A stretch of 64,000 nt of DNA, taken from assembly GCF_053078305.1 (NCBI RefSeq), contig NZ_CP166879.1; one strand, 5' to 3'. How positions within the stretch are numbered: the first letter of the stretch is position 1; the number at the start of each line of letters is the position of its first letter. The translations under genes were made by a program, and so were the position numbers. Below, one piece after another: positions 27,175 to 54,600 of the stretch. The notes below the pieces were generated by a model that worked only from the letters and a program-made list of their open reading frames with translations, was not told where the DNA came from and did not search any database.

Positions 27175-28830
27175 TTAACTCATCACGCGGTCGTCAACAT
27201 ACTGACGTTTATCCGGCGCTGGCGGGAAATACTGATACAGCCATGTTTCACTGATAGCGTCCCCCTGACAACGCAGATACATCCGCATATCGACCGGATC
27301 AGTGGAGTCCGAAGTCGGATACCAGTCAAACTGAATACGATAACCATCAATGGGTTCAATATAGAGAATTTCGATTTGCTTCGCTTCCCCACTGGAAAGC
27401 GTAATCACCGGCTCAATGCCTTTTGGTGCGGCAGCTTTCAGATCACCACCAACGAAATCGACGGCAAAACGACGCGCCCATTTTTCGGGATAGTGTTCAC
27501 CTGGCGCCCAACCTTCCGGGAAACCGCCCATGCCGGTACGCGTCGCCATAACGCGCGCTAATGGGCAATGAACAGGCGGTTGCGCACTCCAGTACAGACG
27601 ATACTGGAATGCAAACTCATCACCCGCTTTTACAGCTTTTTCTGGCTGCCAGAAGCAGACAATGTTATCCAGCGTTTCGCCCGTTGTTGGGATTTCCATC
27701 AGGCCGATGGTGCCCTTACCCCACTTGTTACGCGGTTCCACCCACAGACTTGGGCGTTTGTTATACCAGCCCATGATGTCCTGATAATGGGAGAAGTCAC
27801 GATCCAGTTGCAATAAACCAAACCCTTTCGGGTTGTTGTCGGTGTAAGCATTGAACTGCAATTTTTGCGGATTATTCAGCGGACGGCAAATCCACTCGCC
27901 GTTGCCCCGCCACATGGACAGACGATCAGAGTCATGAATTTGCGGATGAATGGTGTCGCACATCCGACGTTCATTAGTACCGCAGCTGAACATACTGGTC
28001 ATCGGCGCAATGCCCAGCTGTTTAATGTCTTTGCGCGCATACAGGTGATTTTCCACATCCATAATCACCTGACTTTTCTCACAATGGATAGTGAACTTAT
28101 AGGCACCAGTAATACTGGCGCTATCGAGCAACGCATAAACGGTAAAGGTAGTTGCCCCCGGTTTTACCGTATCAAACCAGAAGGCGGTAAAGTCGGGGAA
28201 TTCTTCTTTACTGTCGGTGTAAGTGTCGATCGCCAGGCCGCGAGCCGACAAACCGTATTGATATGTGTCATCAACGGCGCGGAAATAACTCGCACCGAGG
28301 AATGATACTACATCACGACGCGCCAGTTCGGGGGCTTTAAACACGCGAAAACCGGCAAAGCCGAGATCGCTTTGCCCTTCTAATTGTTTGGTATCAACAC
28401 CTGCATCGTTGTATTTGAACAACTCCGGGCGAAAGTGAATTTCACGCGCCAGATGTGTTGCTGGATCTACAGAAAACATACGAACGCGGCGACGGAATCC
28501 CATTCCCATATGGAAGAACTGAGCGTCCAGTTGACGGTTCTCAACGTTATGCCAGAGCGATTTTTCGGCGTCGTATTGAATACTGTTATAAGCCTGCGGC
28601 GTCATTGTCGCCAGCGTGTCAGGTAACGGACGAGGCGCACCACGCCACGCTGTTTGCGCTAAGTCGTGCGCCATTGACTGTAGAATGGAGAAGTCAAAAC
28701 GCTGGGTTTGCCCGTCGGCAATATCAGAATCTGCCGCGAATGCCGCCTGAGAAAAAAGAGAAGCAATGCCGCTGGTACCGCACACGGCGGCCATAGCCAT
28801 TGAACCTTTAATAAATCGTCTACGATCCAT
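27175..28830 (-). CDS. opgD: Glucans biosynthesis protein D (osmoregulated periplasmic glucan)
   Basis: 551-aa ORF; twin-arginine signal [32 protein letters not shown]. Confidence 0.92.
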
Positions 28831-29054
28831 ACCTGAAAGTGAGTCCTTCTGGTGTTGTGAATGGTCCCGCGCTGGTCGTTTTCAGCGGCAAGAAAGTGCT
28901 TATTTATGACCGCTCACTCTAGACAATATTTATTAATAATCCAATTGTTGAACTCAGAGAATATGCATAAATCGGCAATTTTTTTATGTCGATGGGATGA
29001 GCCTGATTCGTTTGTAAAATCAGGCAAATTTTTGCAAAGGCGGATGGTCAGAAT

Positions 29055-30398
29055 TTAAAGCAAACCACAGCGACGTTTACTGCGTTCTTCCGCTTCCTGA
29101 TAAAGCTGGAACTCATCCAAAACCGGACAACCCAACGCCTGCTCAAATGCTTCGCGACTGGCATTACCGTGGCTGCGTGCCTGCGTTTCATTACCCAGAT
29201 TTGACTGGAAGATCCCCGCCGCGCTAACGGGCAAGAAATCTTCATAGGTAATGGGTTGCGCCGCGACCCAACCACGTTCAATTAAGGGTTGTGGATCGTC
29301 TCCGGGATGAATCGCCTGACGATGCGCCTCACCCGAAGGCGTCAGACGGTACCGGAACCATGCCAGCCCTTGCTGACGCATTAAAAACTCACTGTCAGGA
29401 AAAGTGCGGAAGGTTTCCTGTAAATGCATTTGGTGAGTGAGATTATCCTGCCCGGTTCCAGCGTTACGCAGAAGATCATCATACAGTTGTCGCCCTTTCG
29501 GCGTTAATGCCACGCCACGCTGCTCAATTTCACCAAAGCGCGCAGTATGCGTGCCCTGTTTCTGCCCCGCAAACAACACCGTCTCTTCCAGTGCTTTAAA
29601 GCTGGTCTGGCGTAGTAAAATCGGTACCTCGCGGCGCGGCGGCCCTTCGATCAGAATTTTTGGTTCAATTCCGCATTCAGGCATCATCGACTGCACCCGG
29701 TCAATATCCAGCGTACGTGGCGTCAGATGGTTGATATGGCATCCAGGAAAACAGACCACATCAGCAATCAACCGATGTTCGTTGTGCAAGGCGCGATAGG
29801 TTTCGTCATCTACCGTTGCTGACTGGTGCCAGCGAAACGTTTCCAGGGCCTCCTGCACAAACTCCTGTGCCTGTGTTTCGTTAAAACCGCCCTGCTGCTC
29901 ATATTCCTCTAACAGTTGTCGACAACGTGGGGTGAAGATATCGCGCTGACGCAGAATCTCCGCCGCTTTCTGGCGCAAAATTTCGTTCTCGATAAGCTCA
30001 AGGCGGAGTAAGGAGGTAAAAACGCGGAAGGGATTACGCGCCAGAGAAGCATCATCAATGGGCCGAAATGCTGTCGAATGTACCGGCCCCCCTGCCTGCG
30101 AGAGATCGTAATAGCTCACCGGGTACATCCCCATAATGGCAAACATCCGCCGAAGAGTAGCAAGCTCTTGTGCAGTCCCAACGCGAATCGCCCCATGACG
30201 TTCAACATTCAGCCGCGCCAGCTCGTCTGCATTTACCATTTTTTCGTGCAGTTGAGGATTGTTTTCCAGCACAGCCAGATTCACATCAGCTACCAGTTCC
30301 AGCAGCGTGCCATATTGCGGAACTTCTTGCTGGTACATGGCTGACATTGCCTGCGAAAACTGTTCCCGAATCTCATCCGCCGTGATGCTGTTCGCCAT
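29055..30398 (-). CDS. ydcJ: DUF1338-family protein YdcJ (homolog of 2-oxoadipate dioxygenase/decarboxylase HglS)
   Basis: 447-aa ORF recognised as YdcJ; family assignment is from memory. Confidence 0.85.
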   Translation of the reverse strand: MANSITADEIREQFSQAMSAMYQQEVPQYGTLLELVADVNLAVLENNPQLHEKMVNADELARLNVERHGAIRVGTAQELATLRRMFAIMGMYPVSYYDLSQAGGPVHSTAFRPIDDASLARNPFRVFTSLLRLELIENEILRQKAAEILRQRDIFTPRCRQLLEEYEQQGGFNETQAQEFVQEALETFRWHQSATVDDETYRALHNEHRLIADVVCFPGCHINHLTPRTLDIDRVQSMMPECGIEPKILIEGPPRREVPILLRQTSFKALEETVLFAGQKQGTHTARFGEIEQRGVALTPKGRQLYDDLLRNAGTGQDNLTHQMHLQETFRTFPDSEFLMRQQGLAWFRYRLTPSGEAHRQAIHPGDDPQPLIERGWVAAQPITYEDFLPVSAAGIFQSNLGNETQARSHGNASREAFEQALGCPVLDEFQLYQEAEERSKRRCGLL

Positions 30399-30614
30399 AG
30401 TGTCTGCCTCCAGTGGTCAGTAATCTGGAGTGTAGGTAACCGCATTCACTCTGGCGGGAAGAATTTACAAACTGTGATCTCGCCGCGAAAACATCAATAT
30501 TATCCATTTTGCTGTAACATAATTGCTTTAATTGTTAATAATATTTTGCAATCAAGTTATCATAATCAAACAACTTCACTTGTCAGCGACACCGCTTCGT
30601 TTTTAACATCGCTT

Positions 30615-31538
30615 ATGGAAAAAAATAGTCTGTTTAGTCAGCGCATCCGTTTGCGCCACCTTCATACATTCGTAGCTGTCGCACAACAAGGAACTTTGGG
30701 GCGCGCGGCTGAAACCCTTAATTTGAGTCAACCTGCGCTCTCTAAGACATTGAATGAACTGGAGCAACTGACGGGCGCTCGCTTGTTTGAGCGTGGTCGT
30801 CAGGGGGCGCAACTTACCTTACCCGGCGAACAATTTTTAACGCATGCAGTCAGAGTTCTTGACGCCATCAACACTGCCGGACAGTCGCTTCATCGTAAAG
30901 AAGGTCCTAATAATGATGTCGTCAGGGTTGGTGCACTACCTACTGCGGCACTGGGGATATTACCTTCGGTTATAGGTCAGTTTCATCAGCAACAAAAAGA
31001 GACGACCTTGCAAGTTGCGACAATGAGTAACCCTATGATTCTGGCGGGTTTGAAAACCGGGGAAATCGATATCGGCATTGGTCGGATGTCAGATCCTGAA
31101 CTGATGACCGGGCTTAATTACGAACTGCTGTTTCTTGAATCGCTGAAGCTGGTTGTCCGCCCTAATCACCCGCTACTTCAGGAGAACGTAACGCTAAGCC
31201 GGGTGCTGGAATGGCCGGTCGTTGTATCACCAGAAGGCACTGCGCCACGCCAGCATTCAGATGCATTAGTGCAGAGCCAGGGATGTAAAATTCCTTCGGG
31301 TTGTATCGAAACGCTGTCTGCTTCGCTATCCCGTCAACTTACGGTTGAATACGATTACGTGTGGTTTGTCCCTTCTGGCGCTGTAAAAGACGACCTGCGT
31401 CATGCCACGCTGGTGGCCCTGCCTGTTCCGGGACATGGTGCAGGCGAACCGATTGGAATACTGACCCGCGTAGATGCGACGTTCTCTTCTGGTTGCCAGT
31501 TGATGATTAACGCTATTCGAAAATCAATGCCGTTCTGA
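30615..31538 (+). CDS. ydcI: LysR-family transcriptional regulator
   Basis: ORF 30474..31538; start set at ATG 30615 (MEKNSLFSQRIRLRHLHTF); LysR HTH LRHLHTFVAVAQQGTLGRAAETLNLSQPALSKTLNELE; 307 aa. Confidence 0.88.
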   Translation: MEKNSLFSQRIRLRHLHTFVAVAQQGTLGRAAETLNLSQPALSKTLNELEQLTGARLFERGRQGAQLTLPGEQFLTHAVRVLDAINTAGQSLHRKEGPNNDVVRVGALPTAALGILPSVIGQFHQQQKETTLQVATMSNPMILAGLKTGEIDIGIGRMSDPELMTGLNYELLFLESLKLVVRPNHPLLQENVTLSRVLEWPVVVSPEGTAPRQHSDALVQSQGCKIPSGCIETLSASLSRQLTVEYDYVWFVPSGAVKDDLRHATLVALPVPGHGAGEPIGILTRVDATFSSGCQLMINAIRKSMPF

Positions 31539-31544
31539 AAGGTG

Positions 31545-31564
31545 AAGGGATCTGTCGATCCCTC
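31545..31564. terminator. Weak hairpin between convergent ydcI and trg
   Basis: gggatc-tgtc-gatccc inverted repeat then T-rich ttgaacatttt. Confidence 0.3.
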
Positions 31565-31575
31565 CTTGAACATTT

Positions 31576-33216
31576 TCACACCGTAGCGAAACTAACTGGT
31601 TTACCAACTCCGCGAGGTTCTGCCAACACAGATTGTTTGTTCAGACGGAATACGTCCACCGCCTCAGTTAATCGTGCCGCCTGTTCTTCAAGGGACACCG
31701 CCGCTGCTGAGGCCTCTTCTACCAGAGAAGCATTCTGTTGCGTCACCTTATCCATTTCAGAAATCGCCTGGCTAACCTGAGTTATGCCTCTACTTTGCTC
31801 ATCCGAGGCGGCGGCGATTTCCTGCATGATATGTGTGACACTCGCGACGGCATCAACAATAGTGCTCATGGTTTTCCCGGCCGTTGCCACCTCATCCGAT
31901 CCCAGGTCAATTAACCTGACTGATTCACTGATCAAGCCTTCAATCTCTTTCGCCGCCTGGGCGCTGCGGCTTGCGAGTGTCCGTACTTCGCTGGCGACAA
32001 CGGCAAATCCACGCCCTTGCTCACCCGCTCGCGCAGCTTCAACGGCAGCATTCAGTGCCAGAATATTCGTCTGGAAAGCAATACTGTTGATGACGGCGGT
32101 GATCTCAGAAATTTTCTTCGAACTCGTGGAGATAGCGCCCATCGTTTTTACTACACCGGAAACCGTCTGCCCGCCATCGCTGGCTTTAATAGAAGCCTCT
32201 TGCGCCAGTTTACTGGCATAATGCGCGTTATCCGCATTCTGTTTCACCGTCGCAGTGAGTTGCTCCATGCTGGCGGCAGTTTGTTCAATTGCCGCCGCTT
32301 GTTCTTCGGTGCGAGATGAAAGGTCCGCATTGCCAGCGGAAATTTCGCTGGTGCCACGATAAATCTCTTCCGCGCCCTGTCGAACAGTCCCTACTGTCAT
32401 CCCCAGTGAATGCTGCATTTGCTGTAAATGACGACTTAAGCGACCGATTTCATTACGACCCGCCGGTTCATCATTCATCGTCAGATCGCCACTGGCGATT
32501 TTTTCAATCCGTTGTGCGGCATGTTGCAGTGGACGAATGACGATCCGACGTAGCACCATAAATGTTATCAGCGTCATGACCAGGGCAAGCACAAACGCGC
32601 CAATCATAAACATCCCACCCAGGCTGGTGCGCTGATGGGCCAGTTCCGCCAGTTGGTTGGCTCTGGTGCTACGTATCTTAACGGCTTTGTTCAAAATATC
32701 GGTATAAGCATTATCCAGCGTTCGGATCTGCTCACTTTCATGATTGATAATCGCTTCAAACATGCCATTTTTGGCATATTTCATCATAGGTTGCATACCC
32801 GTGATATAAGCCTGGAAGCGTTGATTTAATTCAGTGTCGAGGGCTTCATCAGCAGGTGTTTTCACCGGCCTATTCTGATAAGCACGATAACCTTGCTGCG
32901 ACTGTTTAATCTCCGATTCGGCTTGCGCAATATTTCGCTTCATTGCTTCCATTTCCGCAATACGACTCGCAGCCCCGGCCTGAATCATATTGATCCGGGC
33001 TGAACGCAAAAAATCTGAACTGTTCGCTAACCCGGTCCGAATCTCAATCTCCGCAGTAACATCACGCTGATCGCGATCGGCCTGCCAGAGGAAATAGCCA
33101 GCCAGGGCTGAACTTAATGCGAATAGAACTAAGATACCGCCTAGAATGCAGGCAAATAACGGAACCAACCTGATGTGATGCAAAAAACCTAATCGCTGTG
33201 AGGGAGTTGTATTCAT
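31576..33216 (-). CDS. trg: Methyl-accepting chemotaxis protein III (ribose/galactose sensor)
   Basis: 546-aa ORF; two TM segments, HAMP, conserved MCP signalling region ([28 protein letters not shown]). Confidence 0.93.
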
Positions 33217-51672: not shown

Positions 51673-54600
51673 TTAGAACGTTTTCTTAAAGTTCAGCATC
51701 ACGCCTTTGTCGCTGATGCCGTCCTCTTTCCAGTGATACGCATCCAGATTCAGCGAACTTTCTTTGCTACTGTACTTCACGCCGACGCTCGCCAGGCTGT
51801 TGATACCGCCGCCCTTCTGACCGTCATCGACGTTAAAGTGCTGGCTGCCTGCCCCTGCAAGGCTTGCCGTGCGCTGGCTCTTGCTGTAGCTCAGGTTCGG
51901 CCCGCCTTCCAGCGTCGCATTCGCGCTCCAGCCGCCTTTCCCTGCGTAGTCCAGTTTCAGCCCGACGATGCTGTCCACCGCCGTTTCGCTGCCGCTGTTC
52001 ATGCTCAGGTTAAAGTCTCCGGCATTGCGCTCCTGATAGCCGCCTTCCAGCGTGTGACGCAGTTTCACTCCGGCGTACGGGGTGATTTTCAGCCCTTCGC
52101 GCGGTTCAAAGGTTTTTGCCCCTTCGCTGCGGAACTCCAGGTACTGCTGTTTCACATCCGTGTCTGCCGTTTTGCTGACGTCGCCGTAAGCCACCGAGCG
52201 GCTGCTGTCGAGGTTATGCACGTCATAGCGCAGGGCGTTGTTCCAGTTCATCCCGTTGTCGAAGAACATCTGGTGCTTCAGGCCGAAGAACTGGCTGTAA
52301 CCACCGGTTACGCCGTTGTCGCCCGCTTTCTGCGCACCGTCGCCATCCAGACGGGCGATACCGTACTCCAGACTCAGGCTCTGGCTTTCGCTCAGGTCAA
52401 CGGTTTTACGCAACGCCAGCATGTCGTACTCGGTGTTATTTCCGAGTTCAGCACGCGGGTCGCCTTTCGCCACCACGTTAAACGCCAGACCGTTGCCCAT
52501 CTTCGGCGCGGCGTCCGCCAGCATGCTGAAGCGGTTGCTCAGCACGCGCGCCTCGCGGAATACCGTGGTTGCCTGGCTGCCGCTCACCTGCTTCAGGGCG
52601 CTGTTCAGTTCGGCAGTAGTGCCGACGTTCAGGCTGGTATACAGCTCGTTGTTGGTGTAACCCGCATCCAGTGCCTTCGCCACATCGTTCACCGAAGCAT
52701 CGGTCGCCACATCGGTGTAGGCGTTTTTGCTCATGGTGACGTCAACGTTGCCGCTGGCATCGGTGCTGCCTTTGGCGGTCCACACCACAGACGTTGAGGT
52801 GATGGCATCGGCGTCGGTCAGGTTGCTGCCTTCCACCACGTTGTCGAAACTGACCGTGGTGTCTGCCGTACCGGCGGCGAAACCGGTGTTGATCCCGACA
52901 CCGTTCATGCTGGCGTTGTTGACCTTGAGCTTACCGGCGCTGCCGTCAACGTTGGTACCGACCACATAACCGTTGAGGTTGTTGCTACCGCTGCCAGTCG
53001 CATCTCCCCCTGTTGTTACGCCACCAGAACTGGTGTTCGGCACTTCCGGCAACGTGTAGTCGGTGTAATGCACTTCGGTATTATTACCGTTGTTGCCGTT
53101 CACCCCTTCCACGTTCACGCTGTCGCCCTGCTTAATCAACCCGGAACCGGTCACGCCATCGGCAATCACCACGGTACCGTTGTTAACGATATGGCCTTGT
53201 GTTCCCAACACACTGAATGCAAAGGAATCGTTAGCATAGATATTAATCGTGCCGTTGTTCTCGATCACCGCGTCTGCGGTAGCGTTGGCATCCAGTTGCA
53301 TACCAATTAACCCGGTATCGGTGGTACCTTCGGTGCCGAGATTGATAACGCCGTTGTTAACCAGTTGTGCGTTTTTATCACCTTCCATCGCCACGGCATT
53401 GTTGCCGCTGATGTTCATCACGCCATCGTTGAGGGCAACATAGTTGTTGTGGGTGAATTTAACTGCGCTGGCGTTGTCTTTATCGAAGTTAATCACCCCG
53501 CCATCCTGGTTCCACAGGAAGGCATCGCTTTCTGTCGCACCAGCGGTACTTACCGCCACAGTGACTTTCGCATCCACCACGCCCTTGTTAATAAACTGGC
53601 TGGCGCCGTCGTCATAGTGAATAGCGCCCGCGCCAAGTGCGGCATCCAGCGTCATTTCACCGGTGTTATATAACGTGGCGTTAGCATTGCTTCCCTGGAA
53701 GCGAATGGCGTTTTTACTGTTATCAAGGATGAGCTTGCCGCTGTTGTTGAACGTTGATTGGTCGTCAATATCCAGCGTCCCGGCATTGTTATTTTCATCC
53801 TGATAACCCATTTTCCAGGTCCCCGCGTTATTCACCACCGCAGAGTTATAGAGAATGGCACCTTTACGCGCCTCGCCGCCTGCAAGGTTATTGAATACCG
53901 CATCGCCCTGAGCGTTAACGCGCGCCGACGCAATACCGCTGTTATTCACCGTACCATCGTGAAGTTGTAAAGTTGACAGGGAACCGGTGTTATTAATTAC
54001 CGCGTTGCTGTTTTTCTCAATTTTTACGACGTCATTAAGCGTTCCGTTGTTATTGAAGGTTCCTCCTTCCAGAGTCACCGTGTTCAATACACCTTCATTG
54101 GTTAACGCACCGCCTTCATTCACGACGATGGCTGAGCTAATGGTTCCGCTCGACTCGTTAACCAGCGCACCATTTTCGAGTATCCTGATCGTTCCATTTT
54201 TAACAGCACCCGCACTGGTGACATCCCCGTTGATAATCGCACCTGACGATAATAATACGGTCTCACCCGCAGAACTTAATACATCGCCATCATCATATAA
54301 ATCGGCAATATAATTATCCGTTGGATTATATTCATCGGCCCCCTGGCAAACGCCAAAGGTACAAATTGTGCCATAGTTGATAATAAGCCCAGTGCCATCG
54401 TTATAGAATGCCTGACCATTTTCCGCGTTAATGTTGATTACGCCTGTCTGGTCATTAATGGCGGTGCCTTCGTGATAAACCGCCATGCCGACGAGTTTAT
54501 TCACACCGAGAGAATCGTTGTAATTTTCATTTTTCTCCAGGTTGATGGTTCCCTGGTTAATGACCGTGTTGGTATTACCATACGCCGCCATCCCCGCACC

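Follow-up and report, generated by a model that had tools for sequence, protein, structure and literature searches.

Whether a LysR-type regulator gene that lies back-to-back with an enzyme gene also controls it is the question raised by ydcI and ydcJ of E. coli. In the window, that is the whole stretch of 64,000 nucleotides analysed here (contig NZ_CP166879.1, assembly GCF_053078305.1), the first-pass annotation had described ydcI (LysR) and ydcJ (DUF1338) as divergent over 216 bp and had taken them for a classic pair of inducible regulator and single enzyme. The layout held, since open reading frames, coordinates and families all agree with it; the regulatory relationship required a comparison of the locus with its relatives.

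The gene pair and the enzyme

The ydcJ gene, named hglS in RefSeq, is a 447-aa open reading frame on the minus strand with exact coordinates 29055–30398, and ydcI, which keeps its name there, encodes 307 aa on the plus strand (30615–31538, counted from the ATG). The AT-rich spacer between them (30399–30614) has 216 bp and 38% GC; the divergent orientation and the short common spacer are those of a classic LysR pair. The flanking genes are opgD and trg. A longer call for ydcI, of 354 aa from a GTG at 30474, was rejected as over-extended, because every orthologue aligns from the ATG at 30615, and an Rfam scan of 28700–31800 at E ≤ 1 matched nothing. The locus is present at a coverage of at least 80% in 5405 of 5426 complete E. 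coli genomes, and ydcJ/hglS and ydcI are two well-known core genes of this species; the pair as first described restates known annotation, and YdcI is already the subject of several papers.

The assignment of YdcJ to the DUF1338/HglS family was borne out by the Pfam profile PF07063 HGLS (534.5 bits against a cut-off of 25, profile positions 1–386 of 386 covered) and by the NCBIfam HglS equivalog NF049974, which it passes with 738.4 bits against a cut-off of 550. The protein shares 59% identity over its full length with P. putida HglS (6W1G), and 5 of its 447 residues are different in PDB 2RJB, the solved structure of Shigella YdcJ. The metal-binding residues, whose loss on alignment had been named as the refutation of the family call, are all retained: H68, H224 and E290 align with the Fe(II)-binding triad His70/His226/Glu294 of HglS, and the substrate residues R72, V391 and S392 with Arg74, Val402 and Ser403 (triad, specificity Arg74 and Val402-Ser403 loop numbered as in the text of PMC7286885). 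A set of 30 diverse homologues showed no exception at H68 or H224 and kept both R72 and E290 in at least 90%. In PMC7286885, structure 2RJB is described as a conserved VOC fold and YdcJ, judged from its near-identity to this structure, has the same fold. Moreover, the text of Thompson et al. 2020 (PMC7286885) reports that E. coli YdcJ turns 2-oxoadipate into 2-hydroxyglutarate in vitro, as followed by LC-MS, with 'identical activity to HglS', and states that no route to 2-oxoadipate is known in E. coli. The earlier remark that the E. coli substrate is not established is thus superseded, 2-oxoadipate having been published as the in-vitro substrate in that article, and the enzyme call is correct and already known, both reaction and structure being in the literature.

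The lineage of YdcI and its operator

YdcI is of LysR type, with an HTH_1 domain (PF00126, 69.4 bits, residues 13–72) and a LysR_substrate domain (PF03466, 121.2 bits, residues 99–304). Its best family by far was TIGR02424, the PcaQ equivalog, with 287.9 bits in a full-length alignment against 136 for the next family. This is 16 bits short of the trusted cut-off of 303.8, and we therefore file YdcI as PcaQ-like and not as a certified PcaQ, and infer the orthology. The orthologues of Klebsiella (295.4), Raoultella (299.6), Pseudocitrobacter (299.5) and Pantoea (283.6) also align over the full length, and those adjoining pcaHG reach 295–300 bits, with any other family at 140 or below. Comparison with relatives suggests that YdcI descends from a regulator of the protocatechuate pathway of PcaQ type, the target genes of which are absent from E. 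coli: no protocatechuate catabolic gene lies beside ydcI in the window, and pcaHG was found in no natural complete E. coli genome.

The relatives were taken from the matches listed, among 600 candidates in a genome scan and the top 120 in a list of homologues. In all 33 Enterobacterales loci examined, with the exception of Erwinia mallotivora, ydcI adjoins hglS. In seven loci among these matches (Klebsiella, Raoultella, two Pseudocitrobacter, Kluyvera, Cedecea and RIT691), equivalogs of pcaH and pcaG stand between the two genes, in the order hglS, diverging from pcaH-pcaG-ydcI, with a PcaQ box in the hglS-pcaH spacer. At the position of pcaHG in those loci, Pantoea and Mixta carry a PcaK-like transporter gene; in Pantoea, where it would encode an aromatic-acid transporter, this gene is the next one upstream of hglS and has the same orientation. 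Downstream of hglS, about two thirds of the Enterobacterales loci have a carboxylesterase gene, and some carry a gene for a quinate-family PQQ dehydrogenase beside ydcI. Genes for lysine, pipecolate or 2-aminoadipate metabolism (AmaA-, AmaB- and YdiJ-like) accompany hglS in other phyla; none was found near it in the Enterobacterales loci examined. Outside this order, hglS often has a divergent LysR neighbour, and the LysR partners in other phyla are GcvA-type, a family different from that of YdcI.

The published PcaQ consensus is ATAAC-N5-GTTAT (PMC3572157). Upstream of hglS, the box cATAAy-N5-GTTATg is matched at 10/10 positions in 8 loci and at 9/10 in a further 8, and its distance from the gene is 114 to 133 bp throughout; the boxes of Klebsiella and Raoultella are also 10/10. 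In 384 kb of scanned Enterobacterales loci, all seven 10/10 matches fell at this site, among the matches listed. The arms are conserved in related loci, whereas spacer and flanks of the box are not. Where pcaHG is present, the box stands about 100 to 115 bp from the start codon of pcaH, a distance that would be suitable for activating pcaHG. It is kept as well in 9 loci without pcaHG, two of which (L025 and L026) have perfect boxes with differing spacer bases, and this retention suggests that some role remains there, possibly in regulating hglS or ydcI. Measured from the inferred start of hglS, however, the box is about 100 bp away, against about −65 for a classic LysR site, and its position spreads over 19 bp among loci without helical phasing.

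In E. coli, the ydcI/ydcJ spacer holds no box of 8/10 or better, the best having 7/10, and no LysR site at the fixed position of about −65 before a target promoter was found at the pair. A remnant right arm, ATTATG (30518–30523, minus strand), aligns with the GTTATG arm in 16 loci, while the left arm is missing in Escherichia. Two further boxes of 9/10 were set aside as chance: one within ydcI (30959), at which synonymous positions are not conserved in orthologues, and one at 53670, within a 1964-aa open reading frame.

The box is enriched upstream of genes published as in-vivo targets of YdcI. Gao et al. 2018, who combined ChIP-exo with RNA-seq, describe a multi-gene regulon, with 18 ChIP-exo sites, that covers gltA and proton symporters; their main text nowhere names ydcJ. 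The upstream regions of five published targets contain 5 boxes of at least 9/10 in 2558 bp, against 0.18 expected, and none of 2000 shuffles reached 5; upstream of gltP, one of these targets, the box is perfect (ATAACAAATGGTTAT). It has been reported, moreover, that the phenotypes of YdcI are broad: ydcI is the persistence gene hipQ, it is recurrently mutated, adaptively, under repeated starvation, and it affects acid resistance.

In Agrobacterium, the inducer of PcaQ is beta-carboxy-cis,cis-muconate or gamma-carboxymuconolactone. We put forward tentatively, at somewhat less than even odds, that YdcI is an orphaned PcaQ which still recognises ATAAC-N5-GTTAT and has been rewired onto gltA, gltP, lldP and dtpA, that its effector is a tri- or dicarboxylate like beta-carboxy-cis,cis-muconate, and that, of the structural genes in the ancestral cluster, hglS alone is left.

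Separate modules in the spacer

Alignments of 19 to 33 Enterobacterales spacers divide the intergenic region into an hglS-proximal and a ydcI-proximal module. On the hglS side, a candidate −10 element, C-TACACT (30429–30435, minus strand, −37 to −31 from the ATG), was recognised in a 26-species alignment, in which the T, the A and the final T of the hexamer are invariant and the middle bases vary; no recognisable −35 goes with it in the E. coli sequence. Its C at −13 resembles the sigma-S −10 consensus, and a transcript from this element would be expected to start near 30421. Further upstream, the scan of upstream regions found the conserved block GATCACA-N6-AAATTCTTCC (30457–30479, minus strand, −81 to −59 from the ATG). 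In 29 of 34 scanned Enterobacterales upstream regions, 76 to 83 bp separate GATCACA from the ATG of hglS, and in Erwinia mallotivora, where ydcI does not adjoin hglS, the distance is 98 bp; the motif is missing at one Citrobacter locus and at those of Klebsiella and Raoultella. When other genes insert upstream, the block travels with hglS. A full CRP site was rejected for this block, since conservation is confined to TCACA and the opposite half, in a manual reading of the alignment, matches 1/5 in E. coli.

On the ydcI side, a 19-species alignment delimits TGTTAATAATATTTTGC followed by the dyad GTTATC-N7-AACAAC (30533–30574), a candidate promoter and autoregulatory region of ydcI. Four relatives have the dyad in perfect form, GTTATC-N7-GATAAC, and the GATAAC arm is kept in 18 of 19 aligned species, Phytobacter having GTTAAC. 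This module overlaps promoter-like sequences on both strands (TTAATA-17-TATCAT, plus; CTGACA-16-TATGAT, minus) and stays by ydcI despite inserted pcaHG, pyrophosphatase or PcaK-like genes. Closer to the gene, a conserved promoter-like TTGTCA-18-TAACAT (30580–30609, plus strand) ends 5 nt before the ydcI ATG; its complementary blocks, ATGTTA and TGACAA, hardly vary, and no Shine-Dalgarno was found between it and the ATG. A ydcI transcript from this putative promoter would start near 30615, almost without a leader. In relatives, the two modules are 216 bp to 1.8 kb apart, with other genes between them, and they behave independently. Constitutive sigma-70 promoters and H-NS are recorded for this spacer in Shimada 2014.

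Searches without comparative data were uninformative, being at chance level. The proposed search of 30399–30614 for a LysR T-N11-A box gave 20 occurrences against 19.2 expected, and generic dyad searches gave many matches, also as expected by chance. The fold of a putative 173-nt ydcJ leader was ordinary (z = −0.9). A CTCCAG/CTGGAG hairpin over the ydcJ Shine-Dalgarno was rejected: 72% of cells pair, but covariation was no better than in shuffles (115/500), and the partner slid by +1 scored higher. If TACACT is the −10, the 5' arm of this hairpin would be mostly untranscribed.

With regard to timing, an O157:H7 study reported that ydcJ goes up 3.6-fold on entering stationary phase, and that ydcI rises alongside.

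Possible readings of the locus and known systems

We consider it probable that the locus consists of a known enzyme gene and an orphaned regulator gene of PcaQ lineage, adjacent mainly through shared ancestry. The enzyme HglS would carry out the Fe(II)- and O2-dependent conversion of 2-oxoadipate into D-2-hydroxyglutarate and CO2, established in vitro by others and matched by the sequence features confirmed here. A YdcI of ancestral type would act on pcaHG through the box in the hglS-pcaH spacer of relatives; with pcaHG and the left arm of the operator absent in Escherichia, ydcI would have been left back-to-back with hglS. In E. coli, hglS would be transcribed from its own conserved module (the TACACT −10 with the sigma-S-like C at −13, and GATCACA...AAATTCTTCC upstream), with induction at stationary entry, and ydcI, probably autoregulated, from a separate conserved module, while YdcI may act elsewhere, on genes with PcaQ-type boxes such as gltP, lldP, dtpA and gltA. 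Given the separate hglS module and a YdcI acting elsewhere, direct control of ydcJ by YdcI in E. coli is unproven, and the canonical site is lacking. Of the classic inducible pair claimed at first, the divergent genes and the 216-bp spacer stood; the remainder found no support in E. coli, where the spacer has no box of at least 8/10 and T-N11-A at chance, the modules are independent, and the regulator is of PcaQ type with a multi-gene regulon.

Some observations run counter to a relic: the box in the 9 loci without pcaHG, the adjacency of ydcI and hglS in all but one of the loci examined, and the joint rise of the two genes at stationary entry; a gain of pcaHG in some lineages, instead of a loss in Escherichia, would do so too, and is discussed below as the least probable case. 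It is unlikely, in our judgement, that E. coli YdcI is dedicated to ydcJ and controls it in response to an inducer, sensing 2-oxoadipate, 2-aminoadipate or D-2-hydroxyglutarate and governing a catabolic step of one enzyme. Such a role would agree with a divergent arrangement conserved across Enterobacterales, with a PcaQ-type box about 125 bp before hglS in many relatives, some of them without pcaHG, with the co-induction at the stationary transition, with the divergent LysR neighbour frequent outside Enterobacterales, and with the sensing of D-2-hydroxyglutarate by the LysR protein HgcR of P. putida. However, no box reaches 8/10 in the E. coli spacer, where the T-N11-A count equals chance; in relatives the box is placed about 100 bp, and not about 65, before the inferred hglS start, with the 19-bp variation and no helical phasing; the two promoter modules separate freely, the hglS-linked regulators of other phyla are GcvA-type, ydcJ goes unmentioned in the main text of the ChIP-exo study, and regulon and phenotypes of YdcI are broad.

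A still smaller probability was given to an adjacency that is functional and no relic, in which hglS is, or used to be, a member of the YdcI/PcaQ regulon and the enterobacterial enzyme serves the catabolism of aromatic or hydroaromatic acids and not of lysine. The upstream spacer common to hglS and pcaHG with the PcaQ box between them, the PcaK-like transporter gene directly before hglS on the same strand in Pantoea, the carboxylesterase downstream of hglS, found in about two thirds of the loci, the quinate-family PQQ dehydrogenase by some ydcI genes and the lack of AmaA-, AmaB- and YdiJ-like genes near hglS in this order all fit it. Nevertheless, no 3,4-cleavage step of the beta-ketoadipate pathway is known to give 2-oxoadipate; the enzyme still has the Arg specific for 2-oxoadipate together with the Val-Ser loop, and this compound is its substrate in vitro, and gene neighbourhood alone is weak evidence. 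Very improbable, finally, is that some Enterobacteriaceae gained pcaHG and the box beside a pre-existing ydcI-hglS pair, E. coli showing the ancestral state and YdcI never having regulated pca genes in the line leading to Escherichia. The PcaQ-model scores of YdcI in every lineage, among them Pantoea and E. coli (284–300, with at most 140 on other models), the persistence of the box in genomes lacking pcaHG, the remnant arm at the homologous E. coli position and the PcaQ boxes at E. coli YdcI targets argue against such a gain, even if many genera show the direct ydcI-hglS arrangement and pcaHG is missing from the locus in Erwiniaceae, the outgroup.

The reading of a known enzyme beside an orphaned regulator offers a handle on the site and ligand of YdcI, namely a candidate 15-bp box and PcaQ-type ligand candidates, for a protein relevant to acid resistance, persistence and mutation under repeated starvation. 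It raises the question whether the enterobacterial HglS works in lysine-type or in aromatic-acid-type metabolism, and it advises caution, as divergent adjacency alone is no ground for inferring that a regulator controls its neighbour.

Among known systems, the closest to YdcJ is HglS of P. putida (PP_5260; PDB 6W1G and 6W1H; DUF1338, VOC superfamily), with which it has in common 59% of its residues, the metal triad, the specificity Arg, the Val-Ser loop, the equivalog model and the reported reaction; but the hglS genes of P. putida and of many alpha-, beta- and gammaproteobacteria stand with D-lysine/2-aminoadipate genes and a GcvA-type LysR, none of which is near the E. coli gene. The lysine/glutarate branch csiD-lhgO-gabDTP of E. 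coli, under sigma-S and carbon starvation, resembles ydcJ in a stationary-induced formation of 2-hydroxyglutarate with similar timing, and differs in enzyme, stereochemistry (L-2-hydroxyglutarate) and locus; we would infer a regulation common to both from the −10 sequence only. HgcR (PP_4494, P. putida) is, like YdcI, a LysR protein tied to the branch of the HglS product, being a D-2-hydroxyglutarate-sensing activator of the D-2-hydroxyglutarate dehydrogenase gene; unlike ydcI, its gene lies beside that dehydrogenase gene and not beside hglS, and the family match of YdcI points to PcaQ. PcaQ itself, the LysR activator of protocatechuate genes in Agrobacterium, Sinorhizobium and Burkholderia, differs from YdcI in several respects: YdcI falls 16 bits below the cut-off, E. 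coli has neither pca genes nor an intact box at the locus, the enterobacterial ydcI follows pcaHG on the same strand and does not diverge from a pca operon, and the E. coli regulon, in the account of Gao et al. 2018, consists of gltA and proton symporters. PcaQ is by far the best family match of YdcI, the orthologues beside pcaHG have exactly the PcaQ operator, and the in-vivo targets in E. coli bear the same box.

The ydcI-hglS pair and its enzyme

The ydcJ gene, named hglS in RefSeq, lies on the minus strand at 29055..30398 (447 aa), and ydcI on the plus strand at 30615..31538 (307 aa); they are separated by a spacer of 216 bp (30399..30614, 38% GC) and flanked by opgD and trg. Profile scans assigned YdcJ to Pfam HGLS/DUF1338 (534 bits) and placed it above the NCBIfam HglS equivalog threshold (738 bits vs a cut-off of 550), and found HTH_1 and LysR substrate-binding domains in YdcI. 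Since ORF positions, spacer, family scans and RefSeq names all agree, the coordinates and gene calls of the first-pass annotation turned out to be exact. At a coverage of at least 80%, 5405 of 5426 complete E. coli genomes contain this stretch, with the genes named hglS and ydcI by RefSeq; the pair is a real, ordinary feature, annotated before, and its enzyme function is published. An ORF with a GTG start at 30474 lengthens ydcI to 354 aa (30474..30614), and this form is annotated in some public records, e.g., the E. coli B7A protein (P0151); it was rejected, as alignments of orthologues favour the 307-aa form starting at 30615.

Five residues set YdcJ apart from the Shigella YdcJ protein of the solved structure 2RJB, and its identity to P. 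putida HglS is 59%. In the latter, the metal ligands are His70, His226 and Glu294, Arg74 confers specificity, and Val402 and Ser403 contact the substrate (Thompson et al. 2020, PMC7286885). In the alignment, H68, H224, E290, R72, V391 and S392 of YdcJ are identical to all six, and H68 and H224 did not vary among 30 diverse homologues. E. coli YdcJ has been reported to form 2-hydroxyglutarate from 2-oxoadipate, and it "has identical activity to HglS"; whether E. coli has any route to 2-oxoadipate is left undecided there (PMC7286885). Thus, the equivalog score, the six matching residues, with the metal-binding H68, H224 and E290 all present, and the published activity bear out the earlier assignment to the DUF1338/HglS type. 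The accompanying remark that no substrate has been established still applies to the physiology, but no longer to the in vitro reaction. Several psyllid genome papers also name ydcJ.

Gene order and spacer modules in relatives

The HglS alignment, used to scan species-representative genomes, gave at least 80 loci. Among the loci listed, a YdcI orthologue (65–97% identity) lay divergently upstream of hglS at all those of Enterobacteriaceae and Erwiniaceae, except in Erwinia mallotivora, and none was found beside hglS in other orders. In Pseudocitrobacter (two loci), Kluyvera, Cedecea sulfonylureivorans and strain RIT691, and likewise in Klebsiella and Raoultella, found via their YdcI orthologues, pcaH and pcaG sit between ydcI and hglS, co-stranded with ydcI and divergent from hglS; these genes, for the subunits of protocatechuate 3,4-dioxygenase, each scored above their own equivalog threshold. 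In Pantoea and Mixta, the inserted gene shares the strand of hglS and encodes a PcaK-like aromatic-acid transporter; in Citrobacter, it encodes a pyrophosphatase. Among complete genomes, no natural E. coli carried pcaHG; the genes were found in four 'E. coli' genomes (strains JME64-JME67, matches H11-H14; ~70% identity to the Klebsiella genes), which look engineered, because their host field reads 'not applicable'. Many Enterobacteriaceae (loci L010, L013, L014, L023-L026, L069 and L084) have four additional genes between hglS and opgD, for a carboxylesterase, a second LysR, a methionine-aminotransferase-like protein and a periplasmic amino-acid-binding protein. All four are missing from E. 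coli; in carrier species, the methionine-aminotransferase-like product could supply a 2-oxoacid to HglS.

The aligned spacers contain two independent modules. The ydcI-proximal one, with ATGTTAAAAAC, TGACAAG, the dyad GTTRTY-N7-GATAAC and GCAAAATATTATTAACA, remains beside ydcI irrespective of inserted genes. The hglS-proximal one, with GATCACA, AAATTCTTCC and CTACACT at −81, −68 and −37, respectively, relative to the hglS ATG, tracks hglS, also when the transporter gene precedes it, as in Pantoea, and in the Erwinia genome that has no ydcI adjoining hglS. The distance of GATCACA and AAATTCTTCC (30457..30479) to hglS is nearly fixed across most Enterobacterales, also where hglS and ydcI are parted by other genes; of a CRP site, the GATCACA block has the TCACA half only. 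In the TACACT hexamer, 26 species share the first T, the A and the last T without exception and differ in the middle bases, a pattern characteristic of a −10 element, from which we infer a candidate hglS promoter. A C preceding the −10 hexamer, together with a missing −35 element, is reminiscent of sigma-S promoters. The candidate promoter resembles them in both respects, in agreement with the 3.6-fold rise of ydcJ reported for O157:H7 at stationary-phase entry.

On the opposite side (30580..30617), no Shine-Dalgarno sequence of ydcI was found and the conserved promoter-like sequence TTGTCA-18-TAACAT stops 5 nt short of the ATG, so that the ydcI mRNA may be leaderless or nearly so; if true, a link to the reported translational regulation of YdcI in acid is possible. 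A CTCCAG/CTGGAG pairing can form over the hglS ribosome-binding site (30399..30435); this hairpin was set aside, covariation support being absent. Published tables report that ydcJ is strongly affected when CsrB/CsrC are removed, and list a MazF ACA site 5 nt upstream of its start codon.

A PcaQ-type operator

PcaQ is a LysR activator of protocatechuate genes. It was the top NCBIfam model for YdcI, with 287.9 bits over the full length, the next family reaching 136; as the trusted cut-off is 303.8 bits, YdcI is classed by sequence as PcaQ-like, below the equivalog threshold. YdcI proteins from pcaHG-bearing genomes scored 295–300 bits. Between both modules, 16 related loci have cATAAy-N5-GTTATg, centred 114–133 bp upstream of hglS, with conserved arms and freely varying spacer and flanks; eight match in 10/10 arm bases and eight others in 9/10. 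All seven perfect boxes in 384 kb of scanned Enterobacterales loci lie at this site, and those of Klebsiella and Raoultella are perfect too. In pcaHG-bearing genomes, ~100–115 bp separate the box from the start codon of pcaH, and ~100 bp separate it from the hglS start inferred above. LysR sites usually lie near −65 of the target promoter, and the position is compatible with such a site at pcaH. The sequence equals the published PcaQ consensus ATAAC-N5-GTTAT, found upstream of pcaH in Burkholderia xenovorans (PMC3572157). The E. coli spacer contains no box of at least 8/10, and only a right-arm remnant (ATTATG, 30518..30523) at the homologous position. The T-N11-A pattern, which the first-pass annotation had proposed to look for, was uninformative, since it occurred 20 times vs 19.2 expected.

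The ChIP-exo study of YdcI reports 18 sites, repression of gltA, sites at nhaA, dtpA, lldP and gltP, and a motif of AT-rich inverted repeats spaced 7 nt (Gao et al. 2018). Read as ATAA-N7-TTAT, the box agrees with this motif. The K-12 upstream regions of these five targets (2558 bp) contain five boxes of at least 9/10, against a shuffle expectation of 0.18, and none of 2000 shuffles had five; the box upstream of gltP, ATAACAAATGGTTAT, is perfect. The yobA spacer has an 8/10 box. The K-12 gltA-sdhC spacer contains three boxes (8/10, 9/10 and 8/10) in a stretch of 127 bp (NC_000913.3 754996..755122; locus L086, 2497..2623), a group that may be the site of gltA repression by YdcI. YdcI has also been reported to act in acid survival, under translational and not transcriptional regulation, to be identical with the hipQ persistence locus, and to be repeatedly mutated under repeated starvation. 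No connection between YdcI and ydcJ was found in the published YdcI texts searched, nor were YdcI and PcaQ named together in the literature searched.

Origin of the divergent arrangement

The most economical reading is that YdcI would descend from, and be orthologous to, a PcaQ-type regulator of pcaHG; that Escherichia would have lost pcaHG, rather than relatives gained it, together with half of the operator; that the back-to-back position would be mostly inherited geography; and that hglS would be transcribed from its own promoter module, probably without direct control by YdcI in E. coli. The first-pass annotation had proposed an inducible regulator-enzyme pair, a regulatory interpretation that is only partly supported. 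Control of the neighbouring ydcJ by YdcI, to which we assign a lower probability, is favoured by three observations: the box is kept in genomes without pcaHG, perfect in two; the adjacency is almost universal in the order; and both genes rise at the stationary transition. In a third reading, drawn from the neighbourhood (pcaHG, the PcaK-like transporter, the carboxylesterase and a quinate-family dehydrogenase), hglS would be part of an aromatic-acid regulon; the 2-oxoadipate-specific residues retained in YdcJ speak against it.

The comparison with relatives yields a specific hypothesis for YdcI, that of an orphaned PcaQ, which is apparently unpublished; of modest interest as given, the finding would gain somewhat in weight if this hypothesis were confirmed. 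Outside Enterobacterales (loci L034, L037, L053, L054, L057-L062 and L068), hglS often has genes for an AmaA-like oxidase, an AmaB-like aldehyde dehydrogenase and a YdiJ-like D-2-hydroxyglutarate dehydrogenase close by, and a LysR gene usually adjoins it. This is a true lysine/2-aminoadipate cluster; its regulator is of the GcvA type, a family different from that of YdcI.
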